From NCBI GenBank assembly GCA_021513695.1, contig CP084166.1, forward strand, positions 2,720,001-2,784,000: a DNA stretch of 64,000 nucleotides. The letters are read 5' to 3'. This document shows positions 12,275 to 33,038 of the stretch, piece by piece. This DNA is from Candidatus Heimdallarchaeum aukensis (GTDB lineage: Archaea > Asgardarchaeota > Heimdallarchaeia > Heimdallarchaeales > Heimdallarchaeaceae). Positions within the stretch are counted from its first letter, which is position 1. Each line of letters opens with the position of its first letter. The position numbers and the translations under genes were made by a program. Under the pieces are notes generated by a model. The model did no database searches. It had not been told where the DNA came from and worked only from the letters and a program-made list of their open reading frames with translations.

Positions 12275-13282
12275 TTGAGTTTAAAAGGATATATACTCAG
12301 ACGAACAATCTACATAGTTCCTATTATGCTTGCAATTACACTAATGAACTTTACACTGATTAACATCAGTCCAGGAGATCCTGTTTTAGTAAGATTAGGA
12401 CTGATTAAATGTGAAACACCTGAATGTTACAACGCAGCGTACAACAAAGAAGCAATAGAAATGGGACTACTAGATAATAGTTTATACACTGTTCCATGGT
12501 TCGAAAGATATATAGATTTTGTAAATGATCTATTGCATTTCGACCTAGGAAAAAGCTGGTCATATACCCAAGCAGGAGAAGGGATACCGATATCGAAAAT
12601 AATTGGAGACCACGCAGTTTATACGGTGGTGCTAAACTTACTATCATTTGTTTTATCACTATTATTATCAACAGCAATAGGGGTAGTATCAGCAACAAGA
12701 CAAAACAGTTTCTGGGATAGAACACTAACAGTAGCAATGCTATTAGGATATTCTATGCCTTTGTTCTGGTTAGCAAAATTGTTAATGCTAGTGTCCTATT
12801 ATTTATTTAACTTTACAGGAGTAGCAAACAAATCGGCGTTTAACAAACCGTTAATACTGAACCCGATGTTCTATAAGTTCTTAATATTACCAACATTGTC
12901 ACTAACACTGGGTGGACTAGTGTTCATGGCAAGGTTAATTAGATCACAACTGCTGGAGATATTAAGACAAGATTACATAACAACTGCAAAATCAAAAGGA
13001 TTAGATAGAAGAGCAGTAATATACAAACACGCGTTCAGAAATGGTTTATTGCCTATAGTAACAATTATAGGAAATTCACTACCAGGATTACTATCCGGGT
13101 CAGTAATGGTTGAGTCAGTCTTCGGATGGCCAGGATTAGGAACAATATTCCTAGAAGCTGCATTTATGAGAGATTATCCAATGATGATGGCAACAAACAC
13201 AATATTTCCATTCCTGTTCCTAATAGCAAGATTGCTGACAGATATAACCTATGTCTTTATAGACCCGAGAATAAAATACTAA
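12275..13282 (+). CDS. dppB: ABC peptide transporter permease, DppB/OppB type
   Basis: Characteristic N-terminus YILRRTIYIVPIMLAITLMNF...SPGDPV and the BPD-transport core. TTG start 7 nt after GGTGA. Confidence 0.85.
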   Translation: MSLKGYILRRTIYIVPIMLAITLMNFTLINISPGDPVLVRLGLIKCETPECYNAAYNKEAIEMGLLDNSLYTVPWFERYIDFVNDLLHFDLGKSWSYTQAGEGIPISKIIGDHAVYTVVLNLLSFVLSLLLSTAIGVVSATRQNSFWDRTLTVAMLLGYSMPLFWLAKLLMLVSYYLFNFTGVANKSAFNKPLILNPMFYKFLILPTLSLTLGGLVFMARLIRSQLLEILRQDYITTAKSKGLDRRAVIYKHAFRNGLLPIVTIIGNSLPGLLSGSVMVESVFGWPGLGTIFLEAAFMRDYPMMMATNTIFPFLFLIARLLTDITYVFIDPRIKY

Positions 13283-13301: not shown

Positions 13302-14363
13302 ATGGCAACAGTTGATAAAAAAGCAGTAGAAGAGGAAGGACCAATTCTAGATGAAACAACTTTAAAAGAAATTGAAAGCATGAAAGGAGCAGGACAATGG
13401 TCTATTGTATGGAGAAGATTGAAAAAGGATACAATGGGAATGGTAGGATTATACATTGTAACATTCCTAATATTGATGGCAATAGTGTCCTGGTTCTTAC
13501 TAATGTACGATAAATGGCTATTTAATAATGTAGCACTAACAAGAGATCCAGATAATCCATACTCACTAGCTAATCTATATGTAGACTTCTGGCTACCTGG
13601 AATGAAGGAACCAATAATACTGTTCCAACATCCAGAATGGCAATTCGCAGATCAAGTAAAATTGCCACCAAGCATTGAACACCCATTTGGAACAGATAAA
13701 AACGGAAGAGATATGTTCTCAAGAGTGTTCTTTGGAGCTACAATATCAATGGCTCTAGGTTTCATTGGACAAATGACAACCGTAATCATCGGAACAATTT
13801 TAGGATCACTTTCTGGATATTATGGTGGATTATTTGACGACATCCTACAAAGAATAGTAGAATTACTATACTCAATGCCTGGATTTATCTTGCTAGTGTT
13901 CGTAATCGTGCTATTCGAAAATACAAATATACCAGGAGGAAGATACGCAGTAGTAGTAATATTCTTCTCACTAATAAGCTGGGGAGGAACAGCACTTATA
14001 GTAAGATCGAACTTCTTCTCGCTAAAACAACAAGACTTTGTAGAAGCAGAAAAAGCACTAGGGGCAGCAGACATGAGAATAATATTCAGACATATACTAC
14101 CAAACTCACTAGCACCACTGATAATTATAATAACGCTAGGTATAGCAGGAACAATATTCACATTCGCAGCACTAGCATTCTACGGATTCGGAGACCCAAA
14201 CGTCGTTTCCTGGGGTGACGACCTTAACCGCTGGCAAAATGATCTCATGACTTATCCGTGGATGCCCATGTTTCCCGCTCTAATGATATTTTTCACAGTG
14301 TTGGGTTTCAACTTACTTGGTGACGCCCTTCGTGATGCTCTTGATCCTCGTTTGAAAGATTAA
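13302..14363 (+). CDS. dppC: ABC peptide transporter permease, DppC/OppC type
   Basis: EHPFGTDKNGRDMFSRVFFGATISM motif and six predicted TM segments. It follows dppB by 19 nt. Confidence 0.85.
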   Translation: MATVDKKAVEEEGPILDETTLKEIESMKGAGQWSIVWRRLKKDTMGMVGLYIVTFLILMAIVSWFLLMYDKWLFNNVALTRDPDNPYSLANLYVDFWLPGMKEPIILFQHPEWQFADQVKLPPSIEHPFGTDKNGRDMFSRVFFGATISMALGFIGQMTTVIIGTILGSLSGYYGGLFDDILQRIVELLYSMPGFILLVFVIVLFENTNIPGGRYAVVVIFFSLISWGGTALIVRSNFFSLKQQDFVEAEKALGAADMRIIFRHILPNSLAPLIIIITLGIAGTIFTFAALAFYGFGDPNVVSWGDDLNRWQNDLMTYPWMPMFPALMIFFTVLGFNLLGDALRDALDPRLKD

Positions 14364-15340: not shown

Positions 15341-15385
15341 AAGTTTCTTAGAAAAAAAACCTTACCATTTTTTGTTAAATTTTTG
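15289..15385. repeat. ~95-bp direct repeat, copy 1 (3' end of the 14711..15340 gene plus downstream spacer)
   Basis: atgtgattgtcttttctaaatgtaaaaagtcagagattgcttaaaagtttcttagaaaaaaaaccttaccattttttgttaaatttttgcc matches 19472..19565 at about 90% identity. Confidence 0.8.
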
Positions 15386-15539
15386 CCTTTGTAATCATCT
15401 TATGTGCTCTTTAGGAATTATTTAAGAGATTATATGCGACAAAGGAGTTTTGTACTGACGTGGATGAAGAAGTACATAAATTTTTTAATGTTTTTGGGAA
15501 TATGATTTAAATCTTTATAATTGGAGGAAAATTGTTCTC

Positions 15540-16484
15540 ATGTTATCAGCTAGCAATATATCAAAAACATATCCGAATGGTATTAAAGCATTGCAAGACG
15601 TAAATCTTGAGGTTTCCGAAGGAGAGATAATGGGATTTATTGGCCTAAATGGTGCAGGAAAGACTACTTTTATTAAAATTGCGAATGGTGTGCTGCAAAA
15701 TGATACAGGTAACATTACGATATGTGGTATGAACCCCATATCTGAATTAAAAAAAATAACTCGTAAAATTGCTTGGATTCCTCAAGATGGTCTAAGAAAA
15801 TTCAACACATTTCTTTCTGGTCGTGATAATATAATCTATTTTTCAAGACTGAAGGGTATGAATTCCTTGCAGATTAATCAAAAGTTAGATGAACTCTTGG
15901 AGCATCTATGTCCAGCAAAGGATTTTATTGATAAGAAAATTTCAATTATGAGTGGAGGACAAAAGCAATTGTGCAATCTGTTAACGGGTTTTGTGTTAGA
16001 TAGCGAGTTTCTATTTTGTGATGAAATTTCAGTAAATATTGATCCTATAACCTTAGATAAGATCTACTCTTATTTGCGAGAATATGCATCAGAAGGTAAG
16101 TCTGTATTATTAACCTCACAAAATCTCCATGAAATTGAAGAGTTGTCAAACACTATCGCACTATTACACAAAGGAAAGATTATGCAGGTAGGAAAACCAA
16201 AGGACATATCCAATAAACTTCTAAAATATGAAATAATCGACATAGGGTTTGAAGAAAGAATGAAGGAACTGAATTCAATAAAAGATTTTAGCTTAAAACT
16301 GGAATCAATAGCTGATAAAATAATTATTGATAATGAAAAAAATTTGATACGTATTTATTGTGAAGATTCACTGAGCCTTTTACCTCAAGTAGTTGAGTTT
16401 CTAAAAGAGTATAACTTTGCTGCATCTATAGAAAGTGGTAAAGCTGATTTAACTAATGCAATTATAACTTTAGCGGGGAGATAA
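15540..16484 (+). CDS. ABC-2 type transporter ATP-binding protein
   Basis: Walker A GLNGAGKTT, signature MSGGQKQ and Walker B LFCDE. GGAGGA sits 10 nt upstream of the ATG. Confidence 0.85.
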   Translation: MLSASNISKTYPNGIKALQDVNLEVSEGEIMGFIGLNGAGKTTFIKIANGVLQNDTGNITICGMNPISELKKITRKIAWIPQDGLRKFNTFLSGRDNIIYFSRLKGMNSLQINQKLDELLEHLCPAKDFIDKKISIMSGGQKQLCNLLTGFVLDSEFLFCDEISVNIDPITLDKIYSYLREYASEGKSVLLTSQNLHEIEELSNTIALLHKGKIMQVGKPKDISNKLLKYEIIDIGFEERMKELNSIKDFSLKLESIADKIIIDNEKNLIRIYCEDSLSLLPQVVEFLKEYNFAASIESGKADLTNAIITLAGR

Positions 16485-16486
16485 CT

Positions 16487-17326
16487 ATGAAAACGTTTAT
16501 TGCGAACTTTATAACACAAATAAAATATTTTACTGGCCTCAGAGTCATATGGATTTCAAGGATCGTTTATGTTTTTGTATCCTTACTCACCTCATTTACA
16601 ATGGGTATGGTGTATAAATTTAATGAAGCAACACAAAATTTGATAGGTGTCCAAAATGTTGCTATATTTGTTCTTACTGGCTTTTTCTTGCAATTTTTAA
16701 TGAATGCAAGTTCAGGTTATACACCAGCAGCAGTTAGGGAGATGATACAAAATGGAAACCTTGAGTATTCAGTACATTGTGGAGCTAATATTGTTCAACA
16801 AATATTGGGTATATACATCGCTTCATATCTCTTCGATTTCGTTATTTGTTTGCCTTTCATTGTTACTTTGTCTCTCTTAACCATTAATACAATTTCAGTT
16901 TACGCTTTATTGTCTTTTATAGGTTTTCTCTTTATTTCAGGTTTGTGTCTTTTTTCTATAGGCTTTCTGTTTTCTTCTCTTTACGTTCTGAGCAAGGGAT
17001 TTCTTGGTTTTCATAGTGTGATTGCAAACATAGTCTACTTTATCTGTGGGGTCTATTTTCCAATACAAGGCTATTTAACTCTATTCGGTTCTGTGGGTGG
17101 CTGGATTGCCATAGCTATTGTGTCTATTTTTCCGTATACATATGTATTTGACCTATCACGTTATATGATTTTTCTCGGGCAAAATTATCAAACGTTTTTA
17201 CCTTTTGGTATTGAATTGATAATATTCATTTGTTCTTCAATTTTAATAATGCTTATTGCAATGCAACTATTCAAGTTAGGATTTAAAAGAATGAGAAAAA
17301 AAGGTTTCATAAGTTTTATCTACTAA
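16487..17326 (+). CDS. ABC-2 type transporter permease
   Basis: Polytopic membrane protein of six TM segments, translationally coupled to the upstream ATPase by a TAACTATG junction. Confidence 0.7.
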   Translation: MKTFIANFITQIKYFTGLRVIWISRIVYVFVSLLTSFTMGMVYKFNEATQNLIGVQNVAIFVLTGFFLQFLMNASSGYTPAAVREMIQNGNLEYSVHCGANIVQQILGIYIASYLFDFVICLPFIVTLSLLTINTISVYALLSFIGFLFISGLCLFSIGFLFSSLYVLSKGFLGFHSVIANIVYFICGVYFPIQGYLTLFGSVGGWIAIAIVSIFPYTYVFDLSRYMIFLGQNYQTFLPFGIELIIFICSSILIMLIAMQLFKLGFKRMRKKGFISFIY

Positions 17327-17451
17327 TTCTAAATTTTCATTTTTCCCTTATTTTTTCTTATTCTTCCTTTTTCTTGATTTTTAGATTGTTTTTACTGCAA
17401 CTTATTAAGTAACAATTAAAAATAATAAAACTAATTATCTCTTGATTAAAC

Positions 17452-19464
17452 GTGCGTGATAATTTTTTCTTTCTTAGAAGGTTAAATCTTTTGGGTAAAC
17501 TTGAGAAGTTCGATAAATATTTTTCTTCTATTGATTGGACTTCTATTTTGGATGAAATCAATGAACGCTTGTTTTTTTTTGGTGGAGGTTATAGTCGCAT
17601 TCTTGATTTATTTTCTGCTACTCTCATTGAACGTGGTATTTGGTTTGATTCTCGTTATTATATGAGCAATAAAGTTCTTAAAATTGTCTTTAAGGTTTTA
17701 TCTCAGTTTGCAGATAACAACCTTATTTTTTCTTTAGTTTCTGCTTTGGATGACTACGATTCTGATGTTCGTGCTGCTGTTGCTGAGCTGTTAGGTCTAA
17801 TTGGCCATTCTCTTGCTGTTGACCCCTTAATCAAATTACTCAAAGATGAGAATTGCTTTGTTCGCAGTAGTGTTGTCATAGCTTTGGGTAAGCTTGGTGA
17901 TCCTCGCTCCATTGCTGCATTTAATGATATTGCCTTATATGATGATTCCCAGGGTGTGCGTGCCGATGTTATACGATCCTTGAGAGAGATAGGTGATCCT
18001 CTTGGTGTTTCCCTTCTAATCGAAGCCCTAAAAGATGAGGATAGTATTGTTGTAAGAGCTGCTTTAGAAGTCTTGCTAGAATTGGTTGATTCTGGTTCTG
18101 TTGAGTTATTAATAGAAGCTCTAAAAGATAGGCATTGGTTTGTTCGCAGTAGTGTTGCAGAAGCGTTAGGCAAAATAGGAGACCCTAGAGCCATTGACTC
18201 CCTAGTAGCTGCCTTGAAAGATAAGGATTATTTTGTTCGCAGTAGTGTTGCAAAAGCTTTAAGTAAAATGGACGATTCTAGAGCCATTGACTCCCTAGTA
18301 GCTGCCTTAAAAGATAAAGATTTGCGAATGCGTCGTATTGCTGCAGAAGTGTTGGGAGAAATAGGTGACTCTAGGGCAGTTGAACCCTTAATAGATGTAG
18401 CTCTAAAAGATGAGGGTTTTTTTGTGCGTGAAAAAGCTATAATACTGTTAGGTGAACTAGGTGATTCTAGAGCAGTCAAGCCCTTAATAGAATTACTAAA
18501 AGATGAAGATTGGGAAGTGCGTCGTAATGTTGCAACAGCGTTGGGTAAAATAGGTGACCCTAGAGCCATTGAACCATTAATCAATGCAACTCTATATGAT
18601 GGTAATTGTGAAGTGTGTTATTTTTCTAAAGAGTCACTGATAAAAATAGGTGATATGAGTGCCGTTGAACCTCTAATAGAAGGACTGAAAGATAAGCATC
18701 CTTCTGTTCGTTGTGTTGCTGCTGAAGTGTTAGGTGAACTAGGTGATTCTAGAGCTGTCAAGCCCTTAATAGAATTACTAAAAGATGAAAATAGGAAAGT
18801 GCGTTGTGATGCTGCAGAAGCGTTAGGTAAAATAGGTGACCCTAGAGCCATTGAACCATTAATCAATGCAACATTATACGATGATGTTTTTCATGTGCGT
18901 AATAATGCTGCCTCGGCACTGAGAGAAATAGGCGTTTCTAGTGCTGTTGAACCATTAGTTAAACTAGCCTTATATGATGAAGATTCAGAAGTGCGTAAAA
19001 ATGCTGCTTATGCTTTAGGTGAAATATGTAATCCTAATGTCGTTGACCCATTAATCGATGCAGACCTATATGATGATGAGGAAGTGTGTGAAAATGCTTC
19101 CTCTGAGTTAGGTTTAAGATGTGATCCTAGTTCAGCTGAATTATTAGTAAATTTAACACTCTATGAGGAGGATTCAGTAGTGCGTGCAAGAGCTTTAAAT
19201 TTATTGGTTCAAATACGTGATTCAATTGCAATAGAAAAATTAATCAATATAGTGCTGTATGATGAAGATTCAGAAGTGCGTAAAAATGCCGCAAAAGCCT
19301 TAGGTGAGATAGGTGATACAAATTCATTTGAAACATTAATAATGAATGCCCTAGATGATGACGAGGGGAAAGTGACTAAAAATGTTGAAGAAGCTGTAAG
19401 AATAATGGGCGATCCTGAATTAATTGAATCACTAGAAGATGCCCTATTAAATAAGAGTTGGTAA
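17452..19464 (+). CDS. HEAT-repeat (PBS-lyase HEAT-like) protein, about 18 tandem repeats
   Basis: About 31-aa units such as VRxxAAEALGKIGDPRAIEPLIxALKDxD reiterate from residue ~95 to the C-terminus. The start is uncertain: GTG at 17452, with the first in-frame ATG far downstream. Confidence 0.8.
   Translation: MRDNFFFLRRLNLLGKLEKFDKYFSSIDWTSILDEINERLFFFGGGYSRILDLFSATLIERGIWFDSRYYMSNKVLKIVFKVLSQFADNNLIFSLVSALDDYDSDVRAAVAELLGLIGHSLAVDPLIKLLKDENCFVRSSVVIALGKLGDPRSIAAFNDIALYDDSQGVRADVIRSLREIGDPLGVSLLIEALKDEDSIVVRAALEVLLELVDSGSVELLIEALKDRHWFVRSSVAEALGKIGDPRAIDSLVAALKDKDYFVRSSVAKALSKMDDSRAIDSLVAALKDKDLRMRRIAAEVLGEIGDSRAVEPLIDVALKDEGFFVREKAIILLGELGDSRAVKPLIELLKDEDWEVRRNVATALGKIGDPRAIEPLINATLYDGNCEVCYFSKESLIKIGDMSAVEPLIEGLKDKHPSVRCVAAEVLGELGDSRAVKPLIELLKDENRKVRCDAAEALGKIGDPRAIEPLINATLYDDVFHVRNNAASALREIGVSSAVEPLVKLALYDEDSEVRKNAAYALGEICNPNVVDPLIDADLYDDEEVCENASSELGLRCDPSSAELLVNLTLYEEDSVVRARALNLLVQIRDSIAIEKLINIVLYDEDSEVRKNAAKALGEIGDTNSFETLIMNALDDDEGKVTKNVEEAVRIMGDPELIESLEDALLNKSW
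17750..19330. repeat. DNA-level tandem ~93-bp repeats encoding the HEAT units
   Basis: Nearly identical nucleotide blocks recur, for example ggtgaccctagagccattgaaccattaatcaatgcaac at about 18560 and again at about 18836. They produce long spurious antisense ORFs. Confidence 0.7.
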
Positions 19465-19471
19465 ATGTGAT

Positions 19472-19565
19472 ATGTGCTTGTTTTTTCTAAATGTAAAAAA
19501 TCAGAAACTGCTTAAAAGTTTCTTAGAAAAAAATCTTACCTTTTTTGTTAAATTTTTTCTTTTCT
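19472..19565. repeat. ~95-bp direct repeat, copy 2
   Basis: atgtgcttgttttttctaaatgtaaaaaatcagaaactgcttaaaagtttcttagaaaaaaatcttaccttttttgttaaattttttc matches 15289..15385. Confidence 0.8.
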
Positions 19566-19597
19566 CTTTCCTTTCTCTTCTTTTTTGCTAACTTTTG

Positions 19598-19810
19598 TTA
19601 ATACCTGAATCTTTCTCTAGATTTTAAATAAATTTCCATCAGTTTTGGTTTTTTTGACGCTCTATCCATTAGTTCTTCAATTTCTTTCTTTGGTTGTCCT
19701 TTTTCTGCTTTAATTCTTGATGTAGTAACGATCACATAAATTAACATCGCAGTAATAGCTAAAAAACCTCCAAAAACGATTATACCGAAGGCTACTATTA
19801 CTATATTCAT
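19598..19810 (-). CDS. small single-TM membrane protein (70 aa), paralogue 1
   Basis: MNIVIVAFGIIVFGGFLAITAMLIYVIVTTSRIK..., a TM helix plus a K/E-rich tail. About 75% identical to the ORF at 20082..20297. Confidence 0.5.
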   Translation of the reverse strand: MNIVIVAFGIIVFGGFLAITAMLIYVIVTTSRIKAEKGQPKKEIEELMDRASKKPKLMEIYLKSRERFRY

Positions 19811-19860
19811 CGAATAATAATAGCTTTCAACAATTAAATACTTTTGGAAAAAAGGTATAA

Positions 19861-20080
19861 TTAATTATCTCTTAATTTTTTGTTCATATGCCTTCATTAG
19901 TTCCTTAAAGCTTCTTCTTTTGTAATATCTTTTGGATTTAAGGTAAGTGTTCCATCGTTTATCGCTTTTTCTGTTATTTCTTCTAGCTGTTCTTCTTTTT
20001 CTCCCTCCTCTTTCAATGTTTTTGGTAATTTTGTTAATTAACCTTTCTTGAAGTTCTTCTACTTTTTTTTACTGACTTAT
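19861..20080 (-). pseudogene. decayed duplicate of the 3' end of the Fe-alcohol-dehydrogenase gene
   Basis: The nucleotide sequence parallels 20341..20560 (adh C-terminal ~70 codons) at roughly 85% identity, but in-frame stops break the ORF. Confidence 0.6.
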
Positions 20081-20081
20081 G

Positions 20082-20297
20082 TTAAAACCATAATCTTCCC
20101 TTATACTGTAAATAATTTTCCATTAATTTTGTATTTTTTGCTGCTCTATCCATTAATTCTTCAATTTTCTTTTTTGGTTGTCCTTTTATTGGTTTGATTC
20201 TTGATGTCGTAGCAATTAGATAAATTAATATCGACATAATAGCAAAAAAGCCTACAAAAACAATTACTCCAAAGGCTACTATTAGTGAACTCATCAT
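20082..20297 (-). CDS. small single-TM membrane protein (71 aa), paralogue 2
   Basis: MMSSLIVAFGVIVFVGFFAIMSILIYLIATTSRIK..., immediately downstream of adh on the same strand. Confidence 0.5.
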   Translation of the reverse strand: MMSSLIVAFGVIVFVGFFAIMSILIYLIATTSRIKPIKGQPKKKIEELMDRAAKNTKLMENYLQYKGRLWF

Positions 20298-20360
20298 ATA
20301 ATAATAGTATTCGACAGTTATATACTTTTGGAAAAAGGGTATTAATTATTTCTTAATTTT

Positions 20361-21542
20361 TTATTCATATGCCTTCATTAGTATCCTTAAAGCTTCTTCT
20401 TTTGTTACATCTTTTGGATTTAAGGTAAGTGATCCATCATTTATCGCTTTTTCTGCTATTTCTTCTAGTTGTTCTTCTTTCACTCCTGCTTCTTTCAATG
20501 TTTTTGGTAATTTTATTAGTTCATTTAACCTCTCTTGAAGTTCTTCTATTTTTTCTATGAACTTTCTAGCTCTTTCTTTTTCTTCAGTTTTTACATATAT
20601 TTCTTCTCCCGCTAGTGGTAAAAGTAGTTCTTTTAACTCTTCTTTAATCTCTTCGTAGTTGAATTTAAGCACATGTGGTAGAAATATGTTCATTGCTACT
20701 CCATGAGGAATTTTTGCTACTGCTCCTGCAGCGTGTCCTAAACTATGTACTAGACCGACCATAGAATTAGAAAAAGCTACTCCTGCCATTGTTGCTGCTA
20801 TTGCCATTTCTAATCTTCTTTCTTTGTCCTTTCCATTTTTCACTAGTTCAACGATGTTTTTACTAATTAATTCTATAGCCTTCCATGCATAGACGTCGCT
20901 AAAGAGGTTTTTTTGTAAACAAGTATATGCTTCTATAGCGTGAGTTAGTGCGTCCATAGCTGTTAAAGCTGTTATATAAGCTGGTAGGGTAATAGTCATT
21001 CGTGGATCTATTACTGCTACGTCAGGCATAAGATATCGTGAAGTAAATAACATTTTAGTTGCAGACTTGTCATCTTTTATCACAGCAACTGCTGTTACTT
21101 CTGAACCTGTACCTGCAGTAGTAGGAATAACAAAAAGAGGTCTAAGCGGACGTTTTAATCTTTCTGCTCCAGCAAATTCTTTTAGATCTTTTCCTTTTTC
21201 TGAAACTAAGATATTTACTCCTTTTGCTGTATCTATTACTGATCCTCCGCCTATTGCTATTATCCCATCACATTTTTTTTCATTATAGATTTCTGCTATT
21301 TTATTTACTTCCTCGGTTGAAGAATCTTGAGGTATGTCATCTATTATAGCAGGGAATATTACATCTGCTCCTCCACATGCTTTAATTACTTTATCTACCA
21401 ACCCTGCTTTGTTTACTCCTCTATCAGTGAGAATGATAGGTCTTTTTACTCTGAAATTATCAAATTCCGAAGGCAAGTTTTCTAAAGCTTTTTTGCCTGC
21501 TAATATTTTTGTCTTATTCTGAAATTCAAAATATTCTTTCAT
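20361..21542 (-). CDS. iron-containing (group III) alcohol dehydrogenase
   Basis: GGGSVIDTAKG, the HGVAMNIFLPHVLKFN metal-site region and the Fe-ADH fold. The track start at 21551 is GTG; the likely start is ATG 21542 (MKEYFEF...). It lies 5 nt downstream of aor. Confidence 0.85.
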   Translation of the reverse strand: MKEYFEFQNKTKILAGKKALENLPSEFDNFRVKRPIILTDRGVNKAGLVDKVIKACGGADVIFPAIIDDIPQDSSTEEVNKIAEIYNEKKCDGIIAIGGGSVIDTAKGVNILVSEKGKDLKEFAGAERLKRPLRPLFVIPTTAGTGSEVTAVAVIKDDKSATKMLFTSRYLMPDVAVIDPRMTITLPAYITALTAMDALTHAIEAYTCLQKNLFSDVYAWKAIELISKNIVELVKNGKDKERRLEMAIAATMAGVAFSNSMVGLVHSLGHAAGAVAKIPHGVAMNIFLPHVLKFNYEEIKEELKELLLPLAGEEIYVKTEEKERARKFIEKIEELQERLNELIKLPKTLKEAGVKEEQLEEIAEKAINDGSLTLNPKDVTKEEALRILMKAYE

Positions 21543-21556
21543 TTTTTTCACCTTTA

Positions 21557-23935
21557 TTAAATGTTAAAAGGAATTGAGAATAAATATAGGTAAATTCTAA
21601 CAATATATCTCTTCATTAAATTAATAGTAGGTATTTTTCGCATTATTCTTTTTGCAATAATTCTTGGAAAAAGATAGGTTTCTGTGATATTTAGGCAACG
21701 TATTAGAGACATAGCAATTTGAGTATCTCCTTTAACTTTTATTGCATTAGATGCATAAGCATGATGTATGCCTTTCTGAGCAGTCATTAACTCAAAAGCA
21801 GCGTCTATAGTTCTAAAAGTAATAACTAGATCTGCTTGTTTTTCTGGAATCTTTTGAGGATTTAAGACTCCTTTTTTATTCTTTAAAAGCCCTAAACTAG
21901 TTTCATAGTTATCTACATTAAATAAAATCTTGAAATTTGTTGGCCAAGATCTAATCTCTTGCTTAATATTAGAATCAATAGTTGATAATGTCTTCATTGC
22001 TCTTCCTAAAATTGTAAAAACTAAAGATACTATTCTTTCTTTAATTCTCTTAGGTTTAGGTTGGAATCCTTCTTCTATTCCTAACTTTTTCATGACCTTT
22101 GCTGTTGGGACACCGTTTCTTGAATAACCTCTAATCTTGTAATACTTTTCTTGCATCTCTTCTAAGGGGACAACTTTTTTCTTTTTATCGCTCTCTCTTC
22201 CTTCATTTAGGAATCGTTCAGGAAGAGTATCATCTATTCTTGAGACACCTATCAAGGTGTTCATATATCTTTCTAGAATATGAATTCTTTCACCTGCTTT
22301 GAGAAAATCACGAGAACTTTGTTTTATTCCAGTTACAGTTTCAAATAATTTAGAGTAAATACTTATATCTAATACTTTTTGCGTTATTCTTGGAAAATAG
22401 CTAATAAAGATTTTCAGAAATATTTTTGGCGGATACTTTGCTATTGGTGCTTCTAACATAAAGGCATAAGAAGTAAAAATACATAATTGTAGTGAATTAA
22501 TTGCTGAAAAGAGATTTTCCATGTAATAAACAAACTGTGCTTTAGCTCGCTTCGATTCTCCTTTAAGAAAATTGAAAAATGCTTCTAGGGTGAATAATGA
22601 TGCAGAAAGGTGACACGCTCCTCTATTTGCAACACTGTAGGATAGCCCTTGTCCCCAACATCCTCTTGGATCATATCCTGAAAATTCTAGACCTTTAATA
22701 TTCATTGCAAATCCTTTTCCACCATATTTTTCTGCTAGCCTTTTAGTTCCAAGGGCTAACTCTTCTCCTATTCCTTTTCTGTATGCAATGTCATAAAGTA
22801 TTTCAGAAACTCCTTCTGGAGAACCAAATTTTAGTGGAAAAGAAAAGAGATTTTTCTCATTAGCTTCTATGGCATATGCTAATGTTACAGATATAGAAAT
22901 AGTATCTAATCCTAATCTTGAACAAATTTCATTCCATTCAGCAATTTTTTCAGCATCATATATCTCTAGATTAGAACCAAATAAACTTGTGGTCTCATAT
23001 TCTGGAGCTTGAATTAATTTACCGTTGAACATTCCTTTATGTCCACAGAGGATTGCACAGTTCCTGCAAGAGCTGTATTTCTTATAGAATTCGGACTTTA
23101 ATCTTTCACCATACAGTTCACTAGCTTTTTCGCTCATACCTTTTGTGAAATTGCGAACTGGTAAGATCTTTTTTTCGTTACATATCCTAAAACCAGCGTT
23201 TGTGCCATAATTTCTGTATAAATCTGAAGTATATTCGTTTCTATTAATATACTTAATTGCTTTTCTTTTTATTTTCATGTATTTCTTTTCTTTTTTTGGT
23301 TTTATTCTGAAAGAACCTTTTTCAACAACAATAGCTTTAAGGTTTTTAGCTCCAAAGACAGCTCCTATTCCTCCTCTACCAAAAAATCTGTGTCCAGAAG
23401 CTACATTGGCATAAAGAACCCTATTTTCTCCTGCAGGACCAATAACTAGATTCCCTTTATTTTTTGCTTCTAGTAATTCTTGAGTCTCAAAGATATCTTT
23501 ACCCCAAATTTTAGAAGCACTGTTAAATGAAACACCGTTTTCTGTAATAGATAGATAAGTTGGTTCTTTTGCTTGCCCTTTTATTATTACTCCGTCATAA
23601 CCTACAGATTTCAAGAAAAACGCAAATGACCCTCCACAAGATGAAGAAACTATTAAACCTGTAAGCGGAGATTTAGTAACAGCAGCAAAGCGAGAAGAAT
23701 TGGGTGCACCAGTTCCAACCATTACTCCACCAAAGATGGCAATAATGTTATCTTCACCTAAAGGGTCACAAGACAGATCCATCTTTTTATATAGATAGTA
23801 AATGGCTAATCCCTTTCCTCCGAGATAAAGTTTTCTTTCTTCATTACTTATAGAAACTGTTGTAAAAGCTTTCTTTGTAAGATCAATCTCAAGTAGTTTG
23901 TTGTGAGACCCTAAAATCAACCTAGGACTAGTCAT
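21557..23935 (-). CDS. aor: tungsten-type aldehyde:ferredoxin oxidoreductase with C-terminal SCP2 sterol-carrier-like domain
   Basis: N-terminal LGGKGLAIYYLY...APNSSRFAAVTKSPLTG and the CRNCAILC 4Fe-4S motif. The FETVTG...KAGERIHILERYMNT...DTLPERFLNEG segment also matches the AOR family. Residues ~630-760 (NPQKIPEKQADLVITFRTIDAAFELMTAQKGIHHAYASNAIKVKGD) match the SCP2 fold consensus (ADxTITMxDxDFLALMTGKLNPQxAFxxGKLKIKG). Confidence 0.85.
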   Translation of the reverse strand: MTSPRLILGSHNKLLEIDLTKKAFTTVSISNEERKLYLGGKGLAIYYLYKKMDLSCDPLGEDNIIAIFGGVMVGTGAPNSSRFAAVTKSPLTGLIVSSSCGGSFAFFLKSVGYDGVIIKGQAKEPTYLSITENGVSFNSASKIWGKDIFETQELLEAKNKGNLVIGPAGENRVLYANVASGHRFFGRGGIGAVFGAKNLKAIVVEKGSFRIKPKKEKKYMKIKRKAIKYINRNEYTSDLYRNYGTNAGFRICNEKKILPVRNFTKGMSEKASELYGERLKSEFYKKYSSCRNCAILCGHKGMFNGKLIQAPEYETTSLFGSNLEIYDAEKIAEWNEICSRLGLDTISISVTLAYAIEANEKNLFSFPLKFGSPEGVSEILYDIAYRKGIGEELALGTKRLAEKYGGKGFAMNIKGLEFSGYDPRGCWGQGLSYSVANRGACHLSASLFTLEAFFNFLKGESKRAKAQFVYYMENLFSAINSLQLCIFTSYAFMLEAPIAKYPPKIFLKIFISYFPRITQKVLDISIYSKLFETVTGIKQSSRDFLKAGERIHILERYMNTLIGVSRIDDTLPERFLNEGRESDKKKKVVPLEEMQEKYYKIRGYSRNGVPTAKVMKKLGIEEGFQPKPKRIKERIVSLVFTILGRAMKTLSTIDSNIKQEIRSWPTNFKILFNVDNYETSLGLLKNKKGVLNPQKIPEKQADLVITFRTIDAAFELMTAQKGIHHAYASNAIKVKGDTQIAMSLIRCLNITETYLFPRIIAKRIMRKIPTINLMKRYIVRIYLYLFSIPFNI

Positions 23936-24078
23936 TTTTTTTAAAAGAAAAGAACTTGTTTAAATTTTTTTGTACTGGTAACGGAAATATTATGGTTTTC
24001 TATATTGGTAGAACTCAAAGAGAGAAAGTGAAAAAAAATGAAGAAGCAAACAAAAAAAGAAAAAAGAAAAAAAGGAGT

Positions 24079-27021
24079 TTAGTTAGTTTTAGCGAAAACA
24101 AGACCTTTTTTCTTGAGTAATAGCAGTATTACTGTAATAAGACCAATGCCGCCCACTGCAGCTAGAGGAATAATATACATTAATGGATTAATTTCTTTTT
24201 CTACACTGTAATTTATTTCAAATATTTCAGTTTCTGTAGTTAAAGATGAGTCATCAGTTGCACTTATCTTGAAAATTAAGGTTCCTGATTTTTTGGGTAA
24301 TTCTATGTCAAAGAAGTAACAATCTGTCTCATTGTTGTAAAGCATTGTTTCAACCATCCATTCATCTTCTGTAGCAAATTTGTAAGAAAACAGGACATTT
24401 GTTATATTTCCATCATCGGTCACATTAGCTCTGATTCTTATCGCTTTTTCTTCTAGGACTAAAGGAGAAGAGAATGACGTATCTAACACGATAATTATTG
24501 GAGCTAAAGCTTTTGTAAACTCTATAATGGTAATATTAGATTCTGAAGAAAATCCAGCAAGATCATATGCTCTTACTTTGTATGTCAAGTTCCCTGAAGA
24601 AATAATGACCGGTATCGAAACTGTGTATAAAGATATAGAAGAGTCATATTTCATTGAAAGTATTTTCCAATCGCTTTCTTCATCAAATGTGTAATAAACT
24701 TCTACTGTAAGTAATCCTCCTTTATCTGTGACATTTGCTTGAACTTCAATATCATAACCCCCAGCTAGGTCAAGAGGACTTGTAATAGGAATTAGACTAA
24801 TATTTGGAGCTAATCCATCTGAATAATAACTAAAGGTAGAACTATTAACTGAGTTATCTAATGCGTCAGTTAAGGTAATATAAAATAGAACATCTGTATC
24901 CATATTTGTTCTGGGGATAGTAGAAATAAATTCATAACCTATTGGAATAGTATAATGCTTTAATACAATCTCATAATTTATTACAGAACCAGAATATAAA
25001 TCAGAATAATCTGTAATTTTTAGAGTGAAATTAGCTTCTGTGAAGTCAGATTGAGTTAACCCAAGTTCTAGTAAGTCGATGCTTAAAGTAAAACTTGTTG
25101 GTCTAGTTTCTCTATCAAAAATCAAAAATTCTCTTCCATCATCTAATTCTAACCAGATTCTAATATCTGCAGATTTCTCGTGAGTGATGTCAACGTTTAG
25201 TGTTGCTTCTGATACTCCTCCTCCTCTTTCAACATTTAAAGTTACAAGTGTTGTACTATTGTCTTCAATTAAGGCAGGTAAGTCTACAGCAGTAAAAGTT
25301 TCCATATAATCCATAAAAGAATTGTAGTTTATGACATAGGATATTGTGTTGTTCCACGTTATTCCTCCATCTGTACTATACCAAACAACAGAAGTTTTAA
25401 GGTCTGTGTAGTCGGTCGCATTAAATAACACTTGGACATCGGTAATATTTGAGATTACTGGGGGGTTAACAAGTAGTTTGCCCAAAATAGGTGCTGCACC
25501 ATCAGCATAATAGAAGTTGACTGAAGTGTTCCCCACATTGTCAAAAAAGTCATAAGTTTCAAAGAAGTACTCAACAAACGTTGTTTCGTTTGTTTCAGGT
25601 AGAATAACTGTAAAAGTTGTGGGGGATGTTCCTTCTTCTATTGGCGTTGTATTGACCATCTGTTTTCTTAAGAAAGTTGTTCCGTTAGGCATTGAGTATA
25701 AAATATCAACTCTTTTTGTTCCTGAAGGGTCAACAAATTTTGCAGTAATATTAACTTCTGAACTTGTTAATGTTACATTTTCTATTCCTGGAATAGATAT
25801 TCCGCCATAAATTGAAATTGAATTTACTCTGGGATTCATGTTATCTACTATGGCGGTTTTTAATCCAGATGATCCCTCTCTTCCTTTTTTAGAGTCAACT
25901 ATATCTGAAGCATTTATCATGTATAGAAGATTAGCTTCTACATTAGAAATATCGTCTATTTGAAGTGTTGTACGGTAACTTGCCGCTGTACTACTTAAAT
26001 CTGTCAAATATTCAAAGTTTTGCGATTTATAGTCTTCCTCACCTTCAATCTTATAGTATAAAGTTACACTAGTATCATTAATCGTTTCTACTCCATCATA
26101 ATCCGTAACTGTGACATTAAATACAAAACCAGTGTCTGCATTAATAACTGTTGGTACTTCATGAATGGTAATCTTGGGGGTCCAATCCATAAGAAATGTG
26201 TATGTTTCACTGGTCATTGAATTATTGAATAGATCAAACGAGGTAACATAATATTCAACCCAAGTGGGAGTGTTAGTTGTGACGCTAGGTGGAGTTATAT
26301 CTCCACTAAAATATTCTTCATATATACGCAAGTAATTAAATACTGGGTCATTTACATTAGGATGATCTCCAATATGTGTGATCGCAAATATCTTATATCC
26401 TAATACAGATTCTGTGCTATCATAATCTACAGGAAATGGTGAAACTTCTTCTGTCCCTCCATATGATCCATCAATATATCTTTGTTCCCATGTTTCTGAA
26501 GTAATATTAAAGGCTTCAATTGAGACATAGACAAGATTGTTACGACTTGTTTCCTTATCAATTGAGCAATATATTCTCTTTATTACATCTCCTTCATTAG
26601 CTATGAAAATGTATTCACCATATCTCCATTCTGTTTTATCATTCGTTTTGATTCCAGTGTCAGTTATGTATCCTGTTGATTCAAACTCTGTCTCATCCAC
26701 AACTAGTTGTAAATCTCTACTCATCGAAGCGTTAAACAAAGTATCGTTTAGTGAAATATACTTCCACCACAGAGTAGCATTCCTTATTTCATCTGAATCA
26801 CTTATTGTCAAAGAAACCGTTGCTGTTTCATTGCTATTTGGAGCATCAGGACTAACCTGTGGTGTTCCGAAGAAACTATATTCTGAACTGAATTTTATAG
26901 GTGTTTCTCTGTCTAAAGTTCGGTTTGAAGATAAGTAAATATTCAGCGATACTTCTACACTAGCAGTTATTAAGACAGCTGTAATTAAAATAATTTGGCT
27001 AAATTTCTTTAATTCTTTCAT
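24079..27021 (-). CDS. large cell-surface (S-layer-like) glycoprotein, N-terminal signal peptide and C-terminal TM anchor
   Basis: A signal-like N-terminus FSQIILITAVLITASVEVSL, dozens of N-x-S/T sequons, and a C-terminal LMYIIPLAAVGGIGLITVILLLLKKKG TM plus basic tail. No enzymatic motifs. Confidence 0.6.
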   Translation of the reverse strand: MKELKKFSQIILITAVLITASVEVSLNIYLSSNRTLDRETPIKFSSEYSFFGTPQVSPDAPNSNETATVSLTISDSDEIRNATLWWKYISLNDTLFNASMSRDLQLVVDETEFESTGYITDTGIKTNDKTEWRYGEYIFIANEGDVIKRIYCSIDKETSRNNLVYVSIEAFNITSETWEQRYIDGSYGGTEEVSPFPVDYDSTESVLGYKIFAITHIGDHPNVNDPVFNYLRIYEEYFSGDITPPSVTTNTPTWVEYYVTSFDLFNNSMTSETYTFLMDWTPKITIHEVPTVINADTGFVFNVTVTDYDGVETINDTSVTLYYKIEGEEDYKSQNFEYLTDLSSTAASYRTTLQIDDISNVEANLLYMINASDIVDSKKGREGSSGLKTAIVDNMNPRVNSISIYGGISIPGIENVTLTSSEVNITAKFVDPSGTKRVDILYSMPNGTTFLRKQMVNTTPIEEGTSPTTFTVILPETNETTFVEYFFETYDFFDNVGNTSVNFYYADGAAPILGKLLVNPPVISNITDVQVLFNATDYTDLKTSVVWYSTDGGITWNNTISYVINYNSFMDYMETFTAVDLPALIEDNSTTLVTLNVERGGGVSEATLNVDITHEKSADIRIWLELDDGREFLIFDRETRPTSFTLSIDLLELGLTQSDFTEANFTLKITDYSDLYSGSVINYEIVLKHYTIPIGYEFISTIPRTNMDTDVLFYITLTDALDNSVNSSTFSYYSDGLAPNISLIPITSPLDLAGGYDIEVQANVTDKGGLLTVEVYYTFDEESDWKILSMKYDSSISLYTVSIPVIISSGNLTYKVRAYDLAGFSSESNITIIEFTKALAPIIIVLDTSFSSPLVLEEKAIRIRANVTDDGNITNVLFSYKFATEDEWMVETMLYNNETDCYFFDIELPKKSGTLIFKISATDDSSLTTETEIFEINYSVEKEINPLMYIIPLAAVGGIGLITVILLLLKKKGLVFAKTN

Positions 27022-27297
27022 TATTTTAACCTTTTATAGTTTACTAGTACATAGTTACTTTTCTTACATATATAAGGTAACTTCTCCAAAAAAGTAAAGT
27101 TTGTCTCTTAAACGAAGAAAAATAAGTAAAGTGGAATAATTCCTTAAAAAACTAGTATATTTTTATTTTCTAATTAAAGTAAATTATTAATAAGATTACT
27201 ATCTTTCAAAAAAGTTATAAAGTTCTGTAGTTTTTACGTTTATAACAAGGTAAAGCATTAAGATAAACTTATGCAAATGAAAATTTAAAGTGATTTT

Positions 27298-28347
27298 ATG
27301 AGTGTAAGAGCACCGGAAGATATTCTACTAGAAGTAAAAGGCTTAAAAACCTACTTCTTTACAGAAGAAGGAGTAGTGAAAGCTATAGAATCAATTAATT
27401 TTGTTGTTTATAAATCAGAAACATTAGGGCTAGTAGGAGAATCTGGATCTGGAAAAAGTGTAACTGCTCTAAGCATCTTAGGAATAGTACCGGACCCACC
27501 GGGAAAAGTCCTTGAAGGTGAAGTTATTTTCCATGGTCAAGATTTACGTAAATTAAGCCCTGCTGAAATGCGCAAAATCAGAGGAAACCAGATTGCCCAA
27601 GTATTTCAAGATCCAATGACCTCTTTGAACCCTGTTTTCACTGTTGGAGACCAAATCGGAGAAGCTATTATTCTTCATCAACAAGTTTCAAGGAAGGAAG
27701 CTAGAGAAAAAGCTATCAAAATTATGTCTCTTGTTGGTATTCCTTCTGCAGATGAACGTGTTGATAACTATCCCTTTGAGTTCTCAGGAGGTATGCGCCA
27801 AAGAGTTATGATTGCTATGGCTCTCAGTTGTAATCCTGAGCTTCTCATCGCAGACGAACCTACAACAGCTTTAGACGTAACTATTCAAGCTCAAATTCTC
27901 GAGCTTCTAAAAGCAACCAGTGAAGAGTTCGACATGAGTATTATTCTTATTACACATGATATGGGTGTTATTGCAGAGATGTGTGATCGTGTAGCAGTCA
28001 TGTATGCAGGGTATATTGCTGAAGTTAGCGACATAATGACTATTTTCAAGTCTCCTTTGCATCCTTATACCAAAGGTTTGCTCGGAGCTATTCCTCGTCC
28101 TGATGCGAAAAGAGAAGACTTGACGATTATTAGAGGAAGTATTCCTAATCTTATTAATCCTCCATCTGGATGTCGTTTCCATCCTCGATGTGATTACTGG
28201 ATTAAAGGCTTATGTGAAGTGAAAGTTCCTGAGTTTATAGAAATTGAACCAGGACATGAATTAATGTGCCACTTATACACTGAAGAAGGTAAAGCTTATC
28301 TGGAAGCTCACAAAGACCACCCCAGAATATCTTATGCAGCAAAGTAG
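27298..28347 (+). CDS. dppD: ABC peptide transporter ATP-binding protein DppD/OppD type
   Basis: Walker A GESGSGKS, signature FSGGMRQR, Walker [13 protein letters not shown] and the C-terminal oligopeptide-ABC Cys-rich extension. Confidence 0.9.
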
Positions 28348-28358
28348 GTGAATAAAGA

Positions 28359-29564
28359 ATGTCAACACCATCTATTATAGAAAAATTACAAGCAAAAAAA
28401 GGAAAAGATGCAAGAATTAAAACTAAAGAACTCGAGGAAGATGTTGTTCTCGAAGTTGAAAATTTAGCTAAATACTTTAAAATCCCTAATCCTATGGATA
28501 CAACTTGGTTCTTAGTTGCTTTTGTAGCCTCATTAGTAATATTCGCATTTTTCAAAATTATTGGACTTATTCTTATAGGATTGATTATTCTAGCTTATTT
28601 CATTATACCTTATATTCCACCATTCAATAAAAGACCAAAATTTGTTTATCTGAAAGCAGTTGATGGTCTAAACCTTAAAATTAGAAAACAAAAAATTGTA
28701 GGTCTTGTAGGAGAAAGTGGATGTGGAAAGAGTACAGCAGCTAGAACTATTTTACGTCTTCTCGAACCAACCAAAGGTTCTGTTTATTTCAGGGGTATAG
28801 ACATCAACAGATTAACTTCTGATGAATTAAAAGAAATGAGAAGATATATGCAGATAGTGTTTCAAGATCCTTATGCCAGTCTTAACCCAAGAGCAACAGC
28901 TTTTGATATTATATCTGAACCATATATCATTCATGGAGTAGCTTCTGGAGACGAAATAAGTATTAATGTTCTCAGATTGTTAAAGGAAGTAGGATTAGCT
29001 CCTCACCACGCTTACAGATATCCTCATGAGTTCTCTGGTGGTCAAAGACAAAGAATAGGAATTGCTCGTGCTTTAGCTTTAGAGCCTGATTTCATCATCA
29101 TGGACGAACCTGTAAGTAACTTAGACGTTTCTGTAAGAGCAGCAATTATTCAACTAATTCTAAAATTACAACAAAAAATGGGTTTGACTTATCTATTTAT
29201 TGCTCATGATCTTGCACTAGTTCGTATCCTCTGTGATGAAGTAAATGTTATGTATCTCGGAAAACTAATGGAAGCTGGAACAAGCGATGAAATCTTCGAG
29301 GATATGAAGCATCCTTATACAAAAGCTTTAGTTTCTGCAGTTCCAATAGCTGACCCAACAAAAAGATCTAAGAAAATATTCTTACAAGGAGATATTCCTA
29401 CACCAATTAATCCTCCACCAGGTTGCCGTTTCCAAACTCGATGTCCTCTTGTGAGTGACATCTGTCGAGCTGAAGATCCTAAACCTAAATATTTCAGTAA
29501 AACACATGTTGTATATTGCCACAATGTTGAGGGTGGAGAAGATTCTCCAAACGCTTTTGAATAA
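28359..29564 (+). CDS. dppF: ABC peptide transporter ATP-binding protein DppF/OppF type with ~55-aa hydrophobic insertion
   Basis: Walker A GESGCGKST, FSGGQRQR and IIMDEPVSNLD. Residues ~44-97 (TTWFLVAFVASLVIFAFFKIIGLILIGLIILAYFIIPYIPPF) are inserted between the first beta-strand and the P-loop. Confidence 0.85.
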   Translation: MSTPSIIEKLQAKKGKDARIKTKELEEDVVLEVENLAKYFKIPNPMDTTWFLVAFVASLVIFAFFKIIGLILIGLIILAYFIIPYIPPFNKRPKFVYLKAVDGLNLKIRKQKIVGLVGESGCGKSTAARTILRLLEPTKGSVYFRGIDINRLTSDELKEMRRYMQIVFQDPYASLNPRATAFDIISEPYIIHGVASGDEISINVLRLLKEVGLAPHHAYRYPHEFSGGQRQRIGIARALALEPDFIIMDEPVSNLDVSVRAAIIQLILKLQQKMGLTYLFIAHDLALVRILCDEVNVMYLGKLMEAGTSDEIFEDMKHPYTKALVSAVPIADPTKRSKKIFLQGDIPTPINPPPGCRFQTRCPLVSDICRAEDPKPKYFSKTHVVYCHNVEGGEDSPNAFE

Positions 29565-30432: not shown

Positions 30433-31197
30433 ATGCAAGAAGTTGAACAACTTAGGTCTCATTTAGACAGAATTAGAGAATCAATAGACAACTTGAGCAA
30501 TAAGCTCAATAATAAAATCAATACAATTCGTTCTATTTCTTCTTCTACTGATGAAGAAATAAATGTAATTCCTGGATTCTTCGAAGAACTAGAAAAAAAA
30601 GAAAATGAACTAAATGAAGAAATCAAAAAACTAAAAGAAGACCTTCAAAATTTAGTAGATAATATACAAAAAACTGAAGAAGAAATCTCTCTCAATGAGG
30701 TTGAACTACAGAAGTTAAAAGAAAAAGAAAATGAAAAAAGAGAAGAGAAAGATAAGATTATTTCTGAAATAGCTGAGTTGAAAAACAAGAATATTCTTTT
30801 AGATACTCAAATAGAGGAAAAAACAAAAGAACTTGAAACATTAACAGAACAATATTCACAAGTACAAATTAATTCAAAACAACAGATAGAAGAACTAACA
30901 GCAAAAATTAGCGCACTTGAAGAGGAACTAAAGAAAGCGAAAGAAGATAATAAACTTATAGTTTACTTGATGGACGCAGGATTGATGGATGTTCCTGAAG
31001 CTGAAATAATCTCGGTAATTGCAGCAAGTACTGATGGATTAACATTAAACGAAATAAAGGAAAAAGTTTCTATCCCTAGCGTAAGAGTACAACCTACACT
31101 AAATAATTTACTTGAAAAAGTCTTAACTTATGATGCAAGAAGAGAGAAATACCAGATTAGTTCAATAGTACAAGAAGAAATGAACAATAGATCCTAA
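30433..31197 (+). CDS. coiled-coil protein with C-terminal winged-helix-like domain (paralogue B)
   Basis: Same architecture as the upstream gene, 11 nt downstream and preceded by GGAGGA. C-terminal DGLTLNEIKEKVSIPSVRVQPTLNNLLEKVLTY. Confidence 0.5.
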   Translation: MQEVEQLRSHLDRIRESIDNLSNKLNNKINTIRSISSSTDEEINVIPGFFEELEKKENELNEEIKKLKEDLQNLVDNIQKTEEEISLNEVELQKLKEKENEKREEKDKIISEIAELKNKNILLDTQIEEKTKELETLTEQYSQVQINSKQQIEELTAKISALEEELKKAKEDNKLIVYLMDAGLMDVPEAEIISVIAASTDGLTLNEIKEKVSIPSVRVQPTLNNLLEKVLTYDARREKYQISSIVQEEMNNRS

Positions 31198-32375: not shown

Positions 32376-33038
32376 TTAAACTAATGAGGTATTTATTAAA
32401 TAAGTAGAGAAAATAGCATTCATTAATTCATTTCTTTCTCTGATTAACTCAGTGATGATTTCTCCAAATCTTTCGTCTCTTATTTCTTCTCTAACTTCAT
32501 TCAACAGTATTTCGTTAAGTCCTTTGTTTAAACATAAAGTTATTTTATTGCATTTATACAAGATTGCTAGTAATAGTTTGGTGTGCATGGTTGCTTTTTT
32601 CGAATTAATTATAGTCTCTTGTAATTGATGCATTAGTTCAATTTTTACGCGTTCTTCTGTACAGAAAATTTTTCTTCTTTTAAAAAATAGAAACCTTTTT
32701 TCAGATTTAGTTAGTATTCCGCTCTTAATCATAACTTCAATAAAAGATTCAAGTATTTGATTTGATTTTATGCCTAATGATCTTATCCAAAACCTAATAT
32801 CGCTTTCATGTTCATTTTGCATTTCTTCAATAATATTCTTAAAAATAGGTTGTGTAGTTTCTGATGAAATAATCTCTATCTTATTATCATCTCTAATTTT
32901 TATTAAGTTTAACATCTCTAAATCGATAATTATAGATGAAGGTAAACCATAAAAAATAAGGTCACTACTACTTTTTTCTATCCTTCCTCTCCTTTGATCA
33001 ATTAACAAGATTATTAACTTCTCTGTTAGTAATAACAT
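32376..33038 (-). CDS. GPP34 (GOLPH3/Vps74-like) family protein
   Basis: The N-terminal LLLTEKLIILLIDQRRGRI...YGLPSSIIIDLEMLNLIKIRDD follows the GPP34 pattern (LxEELLLLALDDxxGK...LAGAxLAELxLxGRI). The FWIRSLG...SGILTKSEKRFLFFKRRKI and LLLAILYKCNKI blocks are also in family order. Confidence 0.45.
   Translation of the reverse strand: MLLLTEKLIILLIDQRRGRIEKSSSDLIFYGLPSSIIIDLEMLNLIKIRDDNKIEIISSETTQPIFKNIIEEMQNEHESDIRFWIRSLGIKSNQILESFIEVMIKSGILTKSEKRFLFFKRRKIFCTEERVKIELMHQLQETIINSKKATMHTKLLLAILYKCNKITLCLNKGLNEILLNEVREEIRDERFGEIITELIRERNELMNAIFSTYLINTSLV

Follow-up and report, generated by a model that had tools for sequence, protein, structure and literature searches.

An ABC ATPase of the OppF/DppF type encoded by Candidatus Heimdallarchaeum aukensis carries a segment of 57 residues between strands beta1 and beta2 of its nucleotide-binding domain, where canonical OppF has about 13-14. 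The segment is hydrophobic, predicted to be helical, conserved and restricted to one clade. We favour, with moderate confidence, the reading that it is a transmembrane hairpin which anchors OppF in the membrane, probably beside the permease OppC. The DNA analysed, here called the window, is the whole stretch of 64,000 nucleotides from contig CP084166.1, and nucleotide coordinates refer to it.

The ATPase and its family

28359..29564, plus strand: oppF/dppF-type ABC ATPase gene that bears the insertion, a 401-aa ORF with Pfam ABC_tran and oligo_HPY
28359..28442, plus strand: Lys/Arg-rich N-terminal extension, residues 1-28, lineage-specific and missing in bacterial homologues (alignment A1)
28443..28478, plus strand: beta-strand 1, ending at the presumed A-loop aromatic F40 (AlphaFold2 strand 29-43)
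28710..28736, plus strand: Walker A motif GESGCGKST, residues 118-126, alignment columns invariant
29424..29519, plus strand: C-terminal four-Cys motif C356, C362, C369 and C387, 4/4 invariant (alignments A1 and A2)

The Pfam models ABC_tran (Pfam: PF00005) and oligo_HPY (Pfam: PF08352) match OppF at residues 102-252 (E = 2.1e-31) and 304-369 (E = 3.5e-18), respectively. The protein has the full set of Walker A, Q-loop (Q169), LSGGQ signature (SGGQ at 226-229), Walker B and catalytic Glu (D249-E250), D-loop (SNLD at 253-256) and H-loop (H283), and with the exception of N254 these residues are invariant in the 60-sequence alignment A2. Such intact and invariant motifs point to a working ATPase and not a decayed one. 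F40 is likewise invariant in 60/60 sequences of A2; we take it to be the A-loop aromatic that stacks on adenine, from its position relative to HisP Y16 and MalK W13.

The NCBIfam models for DppF/OppF lead with 355-360 bits against 202-210 bits for the OppD/DppD models, every one of these scores lying under the equivalog cut-offs. In a Foldseek comparison with solved structures, OppF and DppF chains ranked at the top, among them E. coli OppF (8z21_D) and DppF (8z1v_D) with 39-42% identity and target-normalised TM-scores of 0.89-0.90. OppF shares with canonical OppF/DppF the ABC_tran and oligo_HPY domains, the latter with four cysteines, the catalytic motifs and, in related genomes, the oppBCDF context. 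In every defining feature tested, the window protein is thus a member of the Opp/Dpp ATPase family. Its counterpart in Ca. Heimdallarchaeum endolithica PR6, whose genome is closed, is 97.5% identical.

The cysteines C356, C362, C369 and C387 may bind a [4Fe-4S] cluster, like their counterparts in E. coli DppF/OppF. DppD and DppF carry [4Fe-4S] clusters on four C-terminal cysteines, and the complex relies on these clusters and disintegrates upon oxidation (PMC12136057).

The Lys/Arg-rich extension at residues 1-28 was left out of the preliminary description, which dealt with the insertion. It is partly conserved in the 26 orthologues described below, with R19, D28 and V29 invariant and with conservation of the R19-I-R-T-K23 stretch as well as of D28. 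The extension could lie on the membrane surface.

Size and layout of the inserted segment

28479..28649, plus strand: inserted segment K41-Y97, 57 aa, defined by the alignments
28500..28550, plus strand: hydrophobic arm 1, T48-F64, TTWFLVAFVASLVIFAF, predicted transmembrane helix (Hessa sums, AlphaFold2 helix 45-64)
28551..28562, plus strand: four-residue turn F65-I68, in orthologues EQ(V/L)I, RQLI or NQIA (entropy, polarity)
28563..28616, plus strand: hydrophobic arm 2, G69-I86, GLILIGLIILAYFIIPYI, predicted transmembrane helix (hydropathy, AlphaFold2 helix 66-85)
28617..28640, plus strand: Pro-rich basic return linker PPFNKRP(K/R), residues 87-94, with P87-P93 invariant in 26 orthologues

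We aligned OppF with bacterial OppF/DppF proteins that are 55-60% identical to it over the core. From F40 to K99, the start of the 'KAVDG' strand, OppF has 58 residues and the bacterial proteins have about 14, so that the net insertion amounts to about 43-44 residues (129-132 bases). The canonical bacterial loop, PIKKGIFSKTVAH, is the counterpart of OppF residues 44-94. After F40 the archaeal protein reads KIPNPMD-TTWFLVAFVASLVIFAF-FKII-GLILIGLIILAYFIIPYI-PPFNKRPKFVYL, followed by K99; the arms are 17 (arm 1) and 18 (arm 2) residues long with the four-residue turn between them.

The alignment confirms the long insertion that had been reported in place of the canonical loop, in an interval (28488..28649) corresponding to OppF residues N44-Y97, and revises the length given for that loop from about ten residues to about 14. 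Of the 40-residue uninterrupted hydrophobic run described there, the hydrophobicity holds; the run is broken in the window copy by K66 in its middle. Two transmembrane helices had been proposed, and all checks that we ran agree with a membrane helical hairpin within the nucleotide-binding domain.

Distribution and selection

We scanned one genome per prokaryotic species with a profile of the insertion alone. The insertion is present in 27 species-representative genomes, all of them Heimdallarchaeota, including AB_125 and the closed PR6 chromosome (CP084167.1). The proteins that bear it fall into about 37 protein clusters, are 75-97% identical and have lengths of 401-409 aa. From these Heimdall loci we took 26 distinct full-length coding sequences as the ortholog set. 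K41-Y97 spans exactly 57 residues in 26/26 orthologues, with zero indels, which answers in the positive whether orthologues share the insertion.

Between I42 and P93, 23 positions are invariant in the 26 orthologues. Twelve of them lie before or in arm 1 (I42, P43, P45, T48, T49, W50, F51, A54, F55, F62, A63 and F64) and four in arm 2 (G69, L70, F81 and P84), and these 16 are joined by the block P87-P93. The most variable positions of the insertion are 65 and 67, with entropies of 2.6 and 2.5 bits. At the turn, most orthologues have polar residues at positions 65 (typically E/N/Q) and 66 (typically Q/T). Conservation along arm 2 oscillates with the 100-degree period of an alpha helix, which argues for one conserved packing face.

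The dN/dS of the insertion is 0.115 when pooled and 0.167 as a median, compared to 0.03 for the ATPase core (Nei-Gojobori method, restricted to the 38 unsaturated pairs). Because dN/dS is well below 1 and the length is fixed, the inserted segment is translated and under purifying selection. The insertion is less tightly constrained than the catalytic core, a difference commonly seen in membrane helices.

These data bear on the reading that the insertion is an artefact, be it a misassembly, an untranslated element inside the gene or a sign of a decaying pseudogene. An assembly artefact had been named beforehand as one way in which the idea of a hairpin could fail. Against it stand the in-frame, fixed-length insertion in 27 independently assembled genomes, one of them closed, its occurrence in about 37 protein clusters, the dN/dS well below 1 and the intact OppF catalytic motifs. 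The artefact reading is effectively refuted, and we give it next to no probability. The other way for the idea to fail, that the segment is a common non-membrane loop of the lineage, does not fit either: the segment is lineage-wide, yet predicted to be membrane-embedded and not soluble.

Hydrophobicity and predicted structure

The Kyte-Doolittle mean over 19 residues reaches up to 2.97 in the insertion. The additive Hessa sums are -1.7 kcal/mol for residues 48-65 and -2.7 kcal/mol for residues 67-86, on a scale that is crude and for segments slightly longer than the arms. Over the orthologues, the additive Hessa sum of arm 1 runs from -0.7 to -2.6 kcal/mol (26/26) and the Kyte-Doolittle mean of arm 2 from 1.84 to 2.57; the additive Hessa score of arm 2 is slightly positive in about half of them, as the scored stretch takes in P84 and a polar residue 85. 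On the same crude scale, just four 19-residue stretches of OppB and OppC together are at or below +1.0 kcal/mol; most of the transmembrane helices expected in these permeases thus score less favourably than the two arms. The hydropathy scan found no comparable segment in the remainder of OppF or in OppD.

Eisenberg mean hydrophobicities of 0.84 (arm 1) and 1.0 (arm 2) come with hydrophobic moments of 0.04 and 0.16. High means together with low moments place the arms in the transmembrane class and not among surface-amphipathic helices. The 15 residues after arm 2 have a net charge of +3, and this C-terminal flank and the basic N-terminal extension fit cytoplasmic ends. Most orthologues have acidic residues (D41, E47) among the seven that directly precede arm 1, which runs counter to the positive-inside rule.

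AlphaFold2, run on the 60-sequence alignment (mean pLDDT 82.9, pTM 0.78), predicted helices at 45-64 and 66-85, with a block-mean pLDDT of about 84-91 for residues 51-80. In the model a helical hairpin sits atop an elongated beta1-beta2 stalk (strands 29-43 and 95-109) on an otherwise standard OppF fold. The segment has the features by which a transmembrane hairpin is recognised: two apolar, non-amphipathic arms of a length sufficient to cross a bilayer, predicted to be helical, and a short turn.

Transporter genes and neighbourhood

12275..13282, plus strand: oppB-type permease, Pfam BPD_transp_1
13302..14363, plus strand: oppC-type permease, the expected membrane partner of OppF, Pfam OppC_N and BPD_transp_1
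27298..28347, plus strand: oppD-type partner ATPase, 349 aa, directly 5' of oppF, with a normal short beta1-beta2 loop and without hydrophobic segment
29654-30421 and 30433-31197, plus strand: tandem paralogous proteins of about 250 aa, coiled-coil-like, weak Pfam hits
10864-11844, minus strand: Arf-family small GTPase, 326 aa, a eukaryote-type trafficking homologue
32376-33038, minus strand: GPP34/GOLPH3-family protein, 220 aa, a eukaryote-type trafficking homologue
24079-27021, minus strand: 980-aa protein, hydrophobic segments at both termini, numerous N-x-S/T sequons, without Pfam match

Related Heimdall genomes have the gene order oppB-oppC-oppD-oppF, followed by two paralogous coiled-coil genes. 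The conserved order argues that the four Opp proteins are one system, in which the permeases are kept. The distance by which oppB and oppC precede oppD is 13 kb in the window; in the related loci that yielded both, it is 0.36-4.7 kb.

In the window, oppB/oppC are split from oppD/oppF by about 13 kb of unrelated genes (14364-27297), which encode an ABC-2-type ATPase and permease, a HEAT/PBS-lyase repeat protein, an Fe-alcohol dehydrogenase, an aldehyde:ferredoxin oxidoreductase and the 980-aa protein. The latter is probably a glycosylated surface protein, and a homologue of it is found upstream of oppD in Ca. H. endolithica. The same junction measures 0.36 kb in locus L001 (8573-8929), about 1.3 kb with one 266-aa ORF in L008 (7530-8793) and 4.7 kb in L004 (4077-8783). 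The oppC/oppD junction looks like a recurrent insertion point.

No gene of the PF00496 type (family-5 substrate-binding protein) adjoins the Opp genes in the window, L001 or L008, and a family-5 binding protein, if any, may be encoded elsewhere in the genome. The coiled-coil-like pair is found 3' of oppF in nearly all Heimdall loci that reach past oppF (36-46% identity). The first protein of the pair is without Pfam hit, and the second has weak sub-threshold hits only.

Searches for similar insertions

We searched OppF residues 29-135 with phmmer against 1.84 billion representative proteins. Matches across the insertion came from a single 50%-identity cluster (P0033) and one fragment (P0136); all remaining hits in this set covered flanking ATPase sequence only and left the insertion unmatched. 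Five proteins considered as further bearers of the insertion (P0164, P0143, P0243, P0145 and P0170) proved on inspection to contain normal polar loops or linkers between domains. The insertion is missing in every non-Heimdall homologue that we saw. A further search with an insertion-only profile, on the origin of the insertion, returned three partial Heimdall proteins alone, a weakly informative result given that it also missed the full-length orthologues.

In a hydropathy screen of all 269 Opp-type proteins that we fetched, transmembrane-like segments directly ahead of a Walker A motif occur in the Heimdall group alone. Two proteins were examined as a second case and rejected. P0139 is a eukaryotic ABCB-like chimera. 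P0094 (685 aa, from a metagenome) is a fused OppD-OppF whose hydrophobic segment is C-terminal (628-655) and whose reliability is doubtful, as it contains frameshift-like low-complexity stretches. The P0094 tail may be another way to anchor an Opp ATPase.

No PDB chain aligned with OppF ahead of residue 95, the stretch 41-95 included, and full-length OppF/DppF matches begin at 96-99. By these comparisons the putative two-helix insertion in OppF appears in no other family member or solved structure. Within the window, we found no DNA repeat or paralogous peptide from which the insertion could have originated. Full-text literature searches returned no description of membrane hairpins within the ATPase domain of ABC proteins, and nothing relevant on Heimdall peptide transporters or on Mollicutes OppF/OppD insertions.

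Comparison with known systems

Canonical OppF/DppF is a peripheral, soluble subunit with a loop of about 14 residues, whereas the Heimdall OppF has 58 residues at this place with two predicted transmembrane helices, and in addition the basic extension. The E. coli OppF loop (WFW..PPK) may resemble TTWF..PPFNKRPK, a likeness that we do not use as evidence.

The insertion site itself is already known. CFTR NBD1 has a regulatory insertion of about 30 residues (404-435) between the same two strands, and this insertion modulates open-burst stability (PMC2217481). The site therefore tolerates insertions without loss of the ATPase. Only the position is shared, flanked in OppF by the AlphaFold2 strands 29-43 and 95-109, and the two insertions have no detectable sequence relationship. 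The CFTR insertion, in a eukaryotic exporter-type protein, is soluble and largely disordered, contains a PKA site and is without hydrophobic arms. We rejected the OppF segment as a CFTR-type regulatory insertion, since it is apolar and predicted to be helical with a pLDDT of 84-91, not soluble or disordered.

Fused ABC half- and full transporters have their ATPase domain in covalent linkage with membrane helices, as we propose for the Heimdall OppF. These transporters have a whole membrane domain of 5-6 helices at a terminus of the ATPase, while OppF has a two-helix hairpin inside the fold and its permeases OppB and OppC are still separate genes. The Mollicutes OppF/OppD (NCBIfam: NF043078, NF043079) also contain large lineage-specific extra sequence, their models having 649 and 561 positions compared to about 330 for canonical proteins. 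OppF matches the Mollicutes models in the C-terminal part only, with the best stretch at residues 204-340 aligned to model positions 473-609. The 'helical hairpin' of M. tuberculosis DppABCD was considered as a parallel and dismissed, as it is a periplasmic loop of DppB (PMC10954201).

Proposed mechanism and alternative readings

In the mechanism we propose, an insertion of fixed length would have been gained four residues after the A-loop F40, between strands beta1 and beta2. The basic N-terminal extension and strand beta1 would remain cytoplasmic, arm 1 (T48-F64) would cross the membrane outward, the four-residue turn, polar in most orthologues, would face the outside, and arm 2 (G69-I86) would cross back, with the PPFNKRP(K/R) linker leading into strand beta2 and the remaining ATPase. 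The hairpin would in this way make OppF an integral membrane subunit with both ends cytoplasmic. It would most likely pack beside the helices of OppC and add two helices to the OppBCDF translocator, and the A-loop corner of the ATPase would be tethered to the membrane via two proline-rich linkers. The complex might be stabilised, or its assembly helped, from one side only, the OppC/OppF side, because OppD is without hairpin. With only 47 residues ahead of arm 1, OppF could also be targeted to the membrane during its translation. The arrangement assumes that, as ABC structures in general suggest, the tip of beta1-beta2 points towards the membrane in Opp/Dpp complexes. The E. coli DppBCDF complex has DppF docked beneath DppC (PMC12136057).

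The hairpin might instead be in the membrane with a chiefly regulatory role, relaying the membrane state or the permease conformation to the ATP site of OppF; lipid packing, thickness or tension could then gate ATP binding or hydrolysis. The insertion starts right after the invariant F40, and the invariant Pro-rich linkers (IPxP ahead, PPFNKRP behind) could transmit movement. Support by analogy comes from E. coli DppF, which is the nucleotide-binding subunit in the resting state of its complex (PMC12136057), and from the modulation of open bursts by the same-site insertion of CFTR (PMC2217481). A passive anchor fits the same features equally, and a regulatory role is compatible with anchoring; as the chief function we consider it unlikely.

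That the bilayer is not crossed, and that the segment is a monotopic re-entrant hairpin in the cytoplasmic leaflet or a hydrophobic protein-protein interface, is suggested by the shortness of the arms (17-18 residues) and by the conserved helical face of arm 2, which speaks for protein packing. In the M. tuberculosis complex, DppB and DppC enclose a V-shaped lateral opening (PMC10954201), and the hairpin could, for instance, fill such an opening between the permeases or bind another partner. A turn with polar or charged residues (E, Q, N, R, K), as most orthologues have it, would, however, be costly to bury in mid-bilayer, and an apolar run of about 35 residues with next to no amphipathic character exceeds the needs of a soluble interface. 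We regard this arrangement as rather improbable, and prefer the transmembrane anchor. A bolder form, in which the hairpin is a working part of the transporter, either as 13th and 14th helix at the OppB/OppC opening or by coupling the bilayer to the A-loop, is speculative and in our estimate has only a slim chance of being right.

Implications

In binding-protein-dependent importers, the ABC ATPase subunits are regarded as soluble and peripheral. If the hairpin is a real membrane part, a small internal insertion can make an ABC ATPase domain membrane-integral, the beta1-beta2 loop would be a general evolutionary 'port' for new functions (compare CFTR), and one-sided anchoring of a heterodimeric ATPase pair would be viable. 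If it is even a working part, the importer's use of ATP would be gated from within the membrane via the ATPase subunit, for which we know of no description in any ABC transporter. Asgard archaea, to which the Heimdall group belongs, are the archaea closest to eukaryotes. The finding would surprise ABC-transporter specialists, and its practical impact would be modest, being limited to one transporter family in one archaeal family. The hairpin offers a compact natural test case for the way in which such hairpins become inserted and for the effect of tethering on the ATPase cycle.
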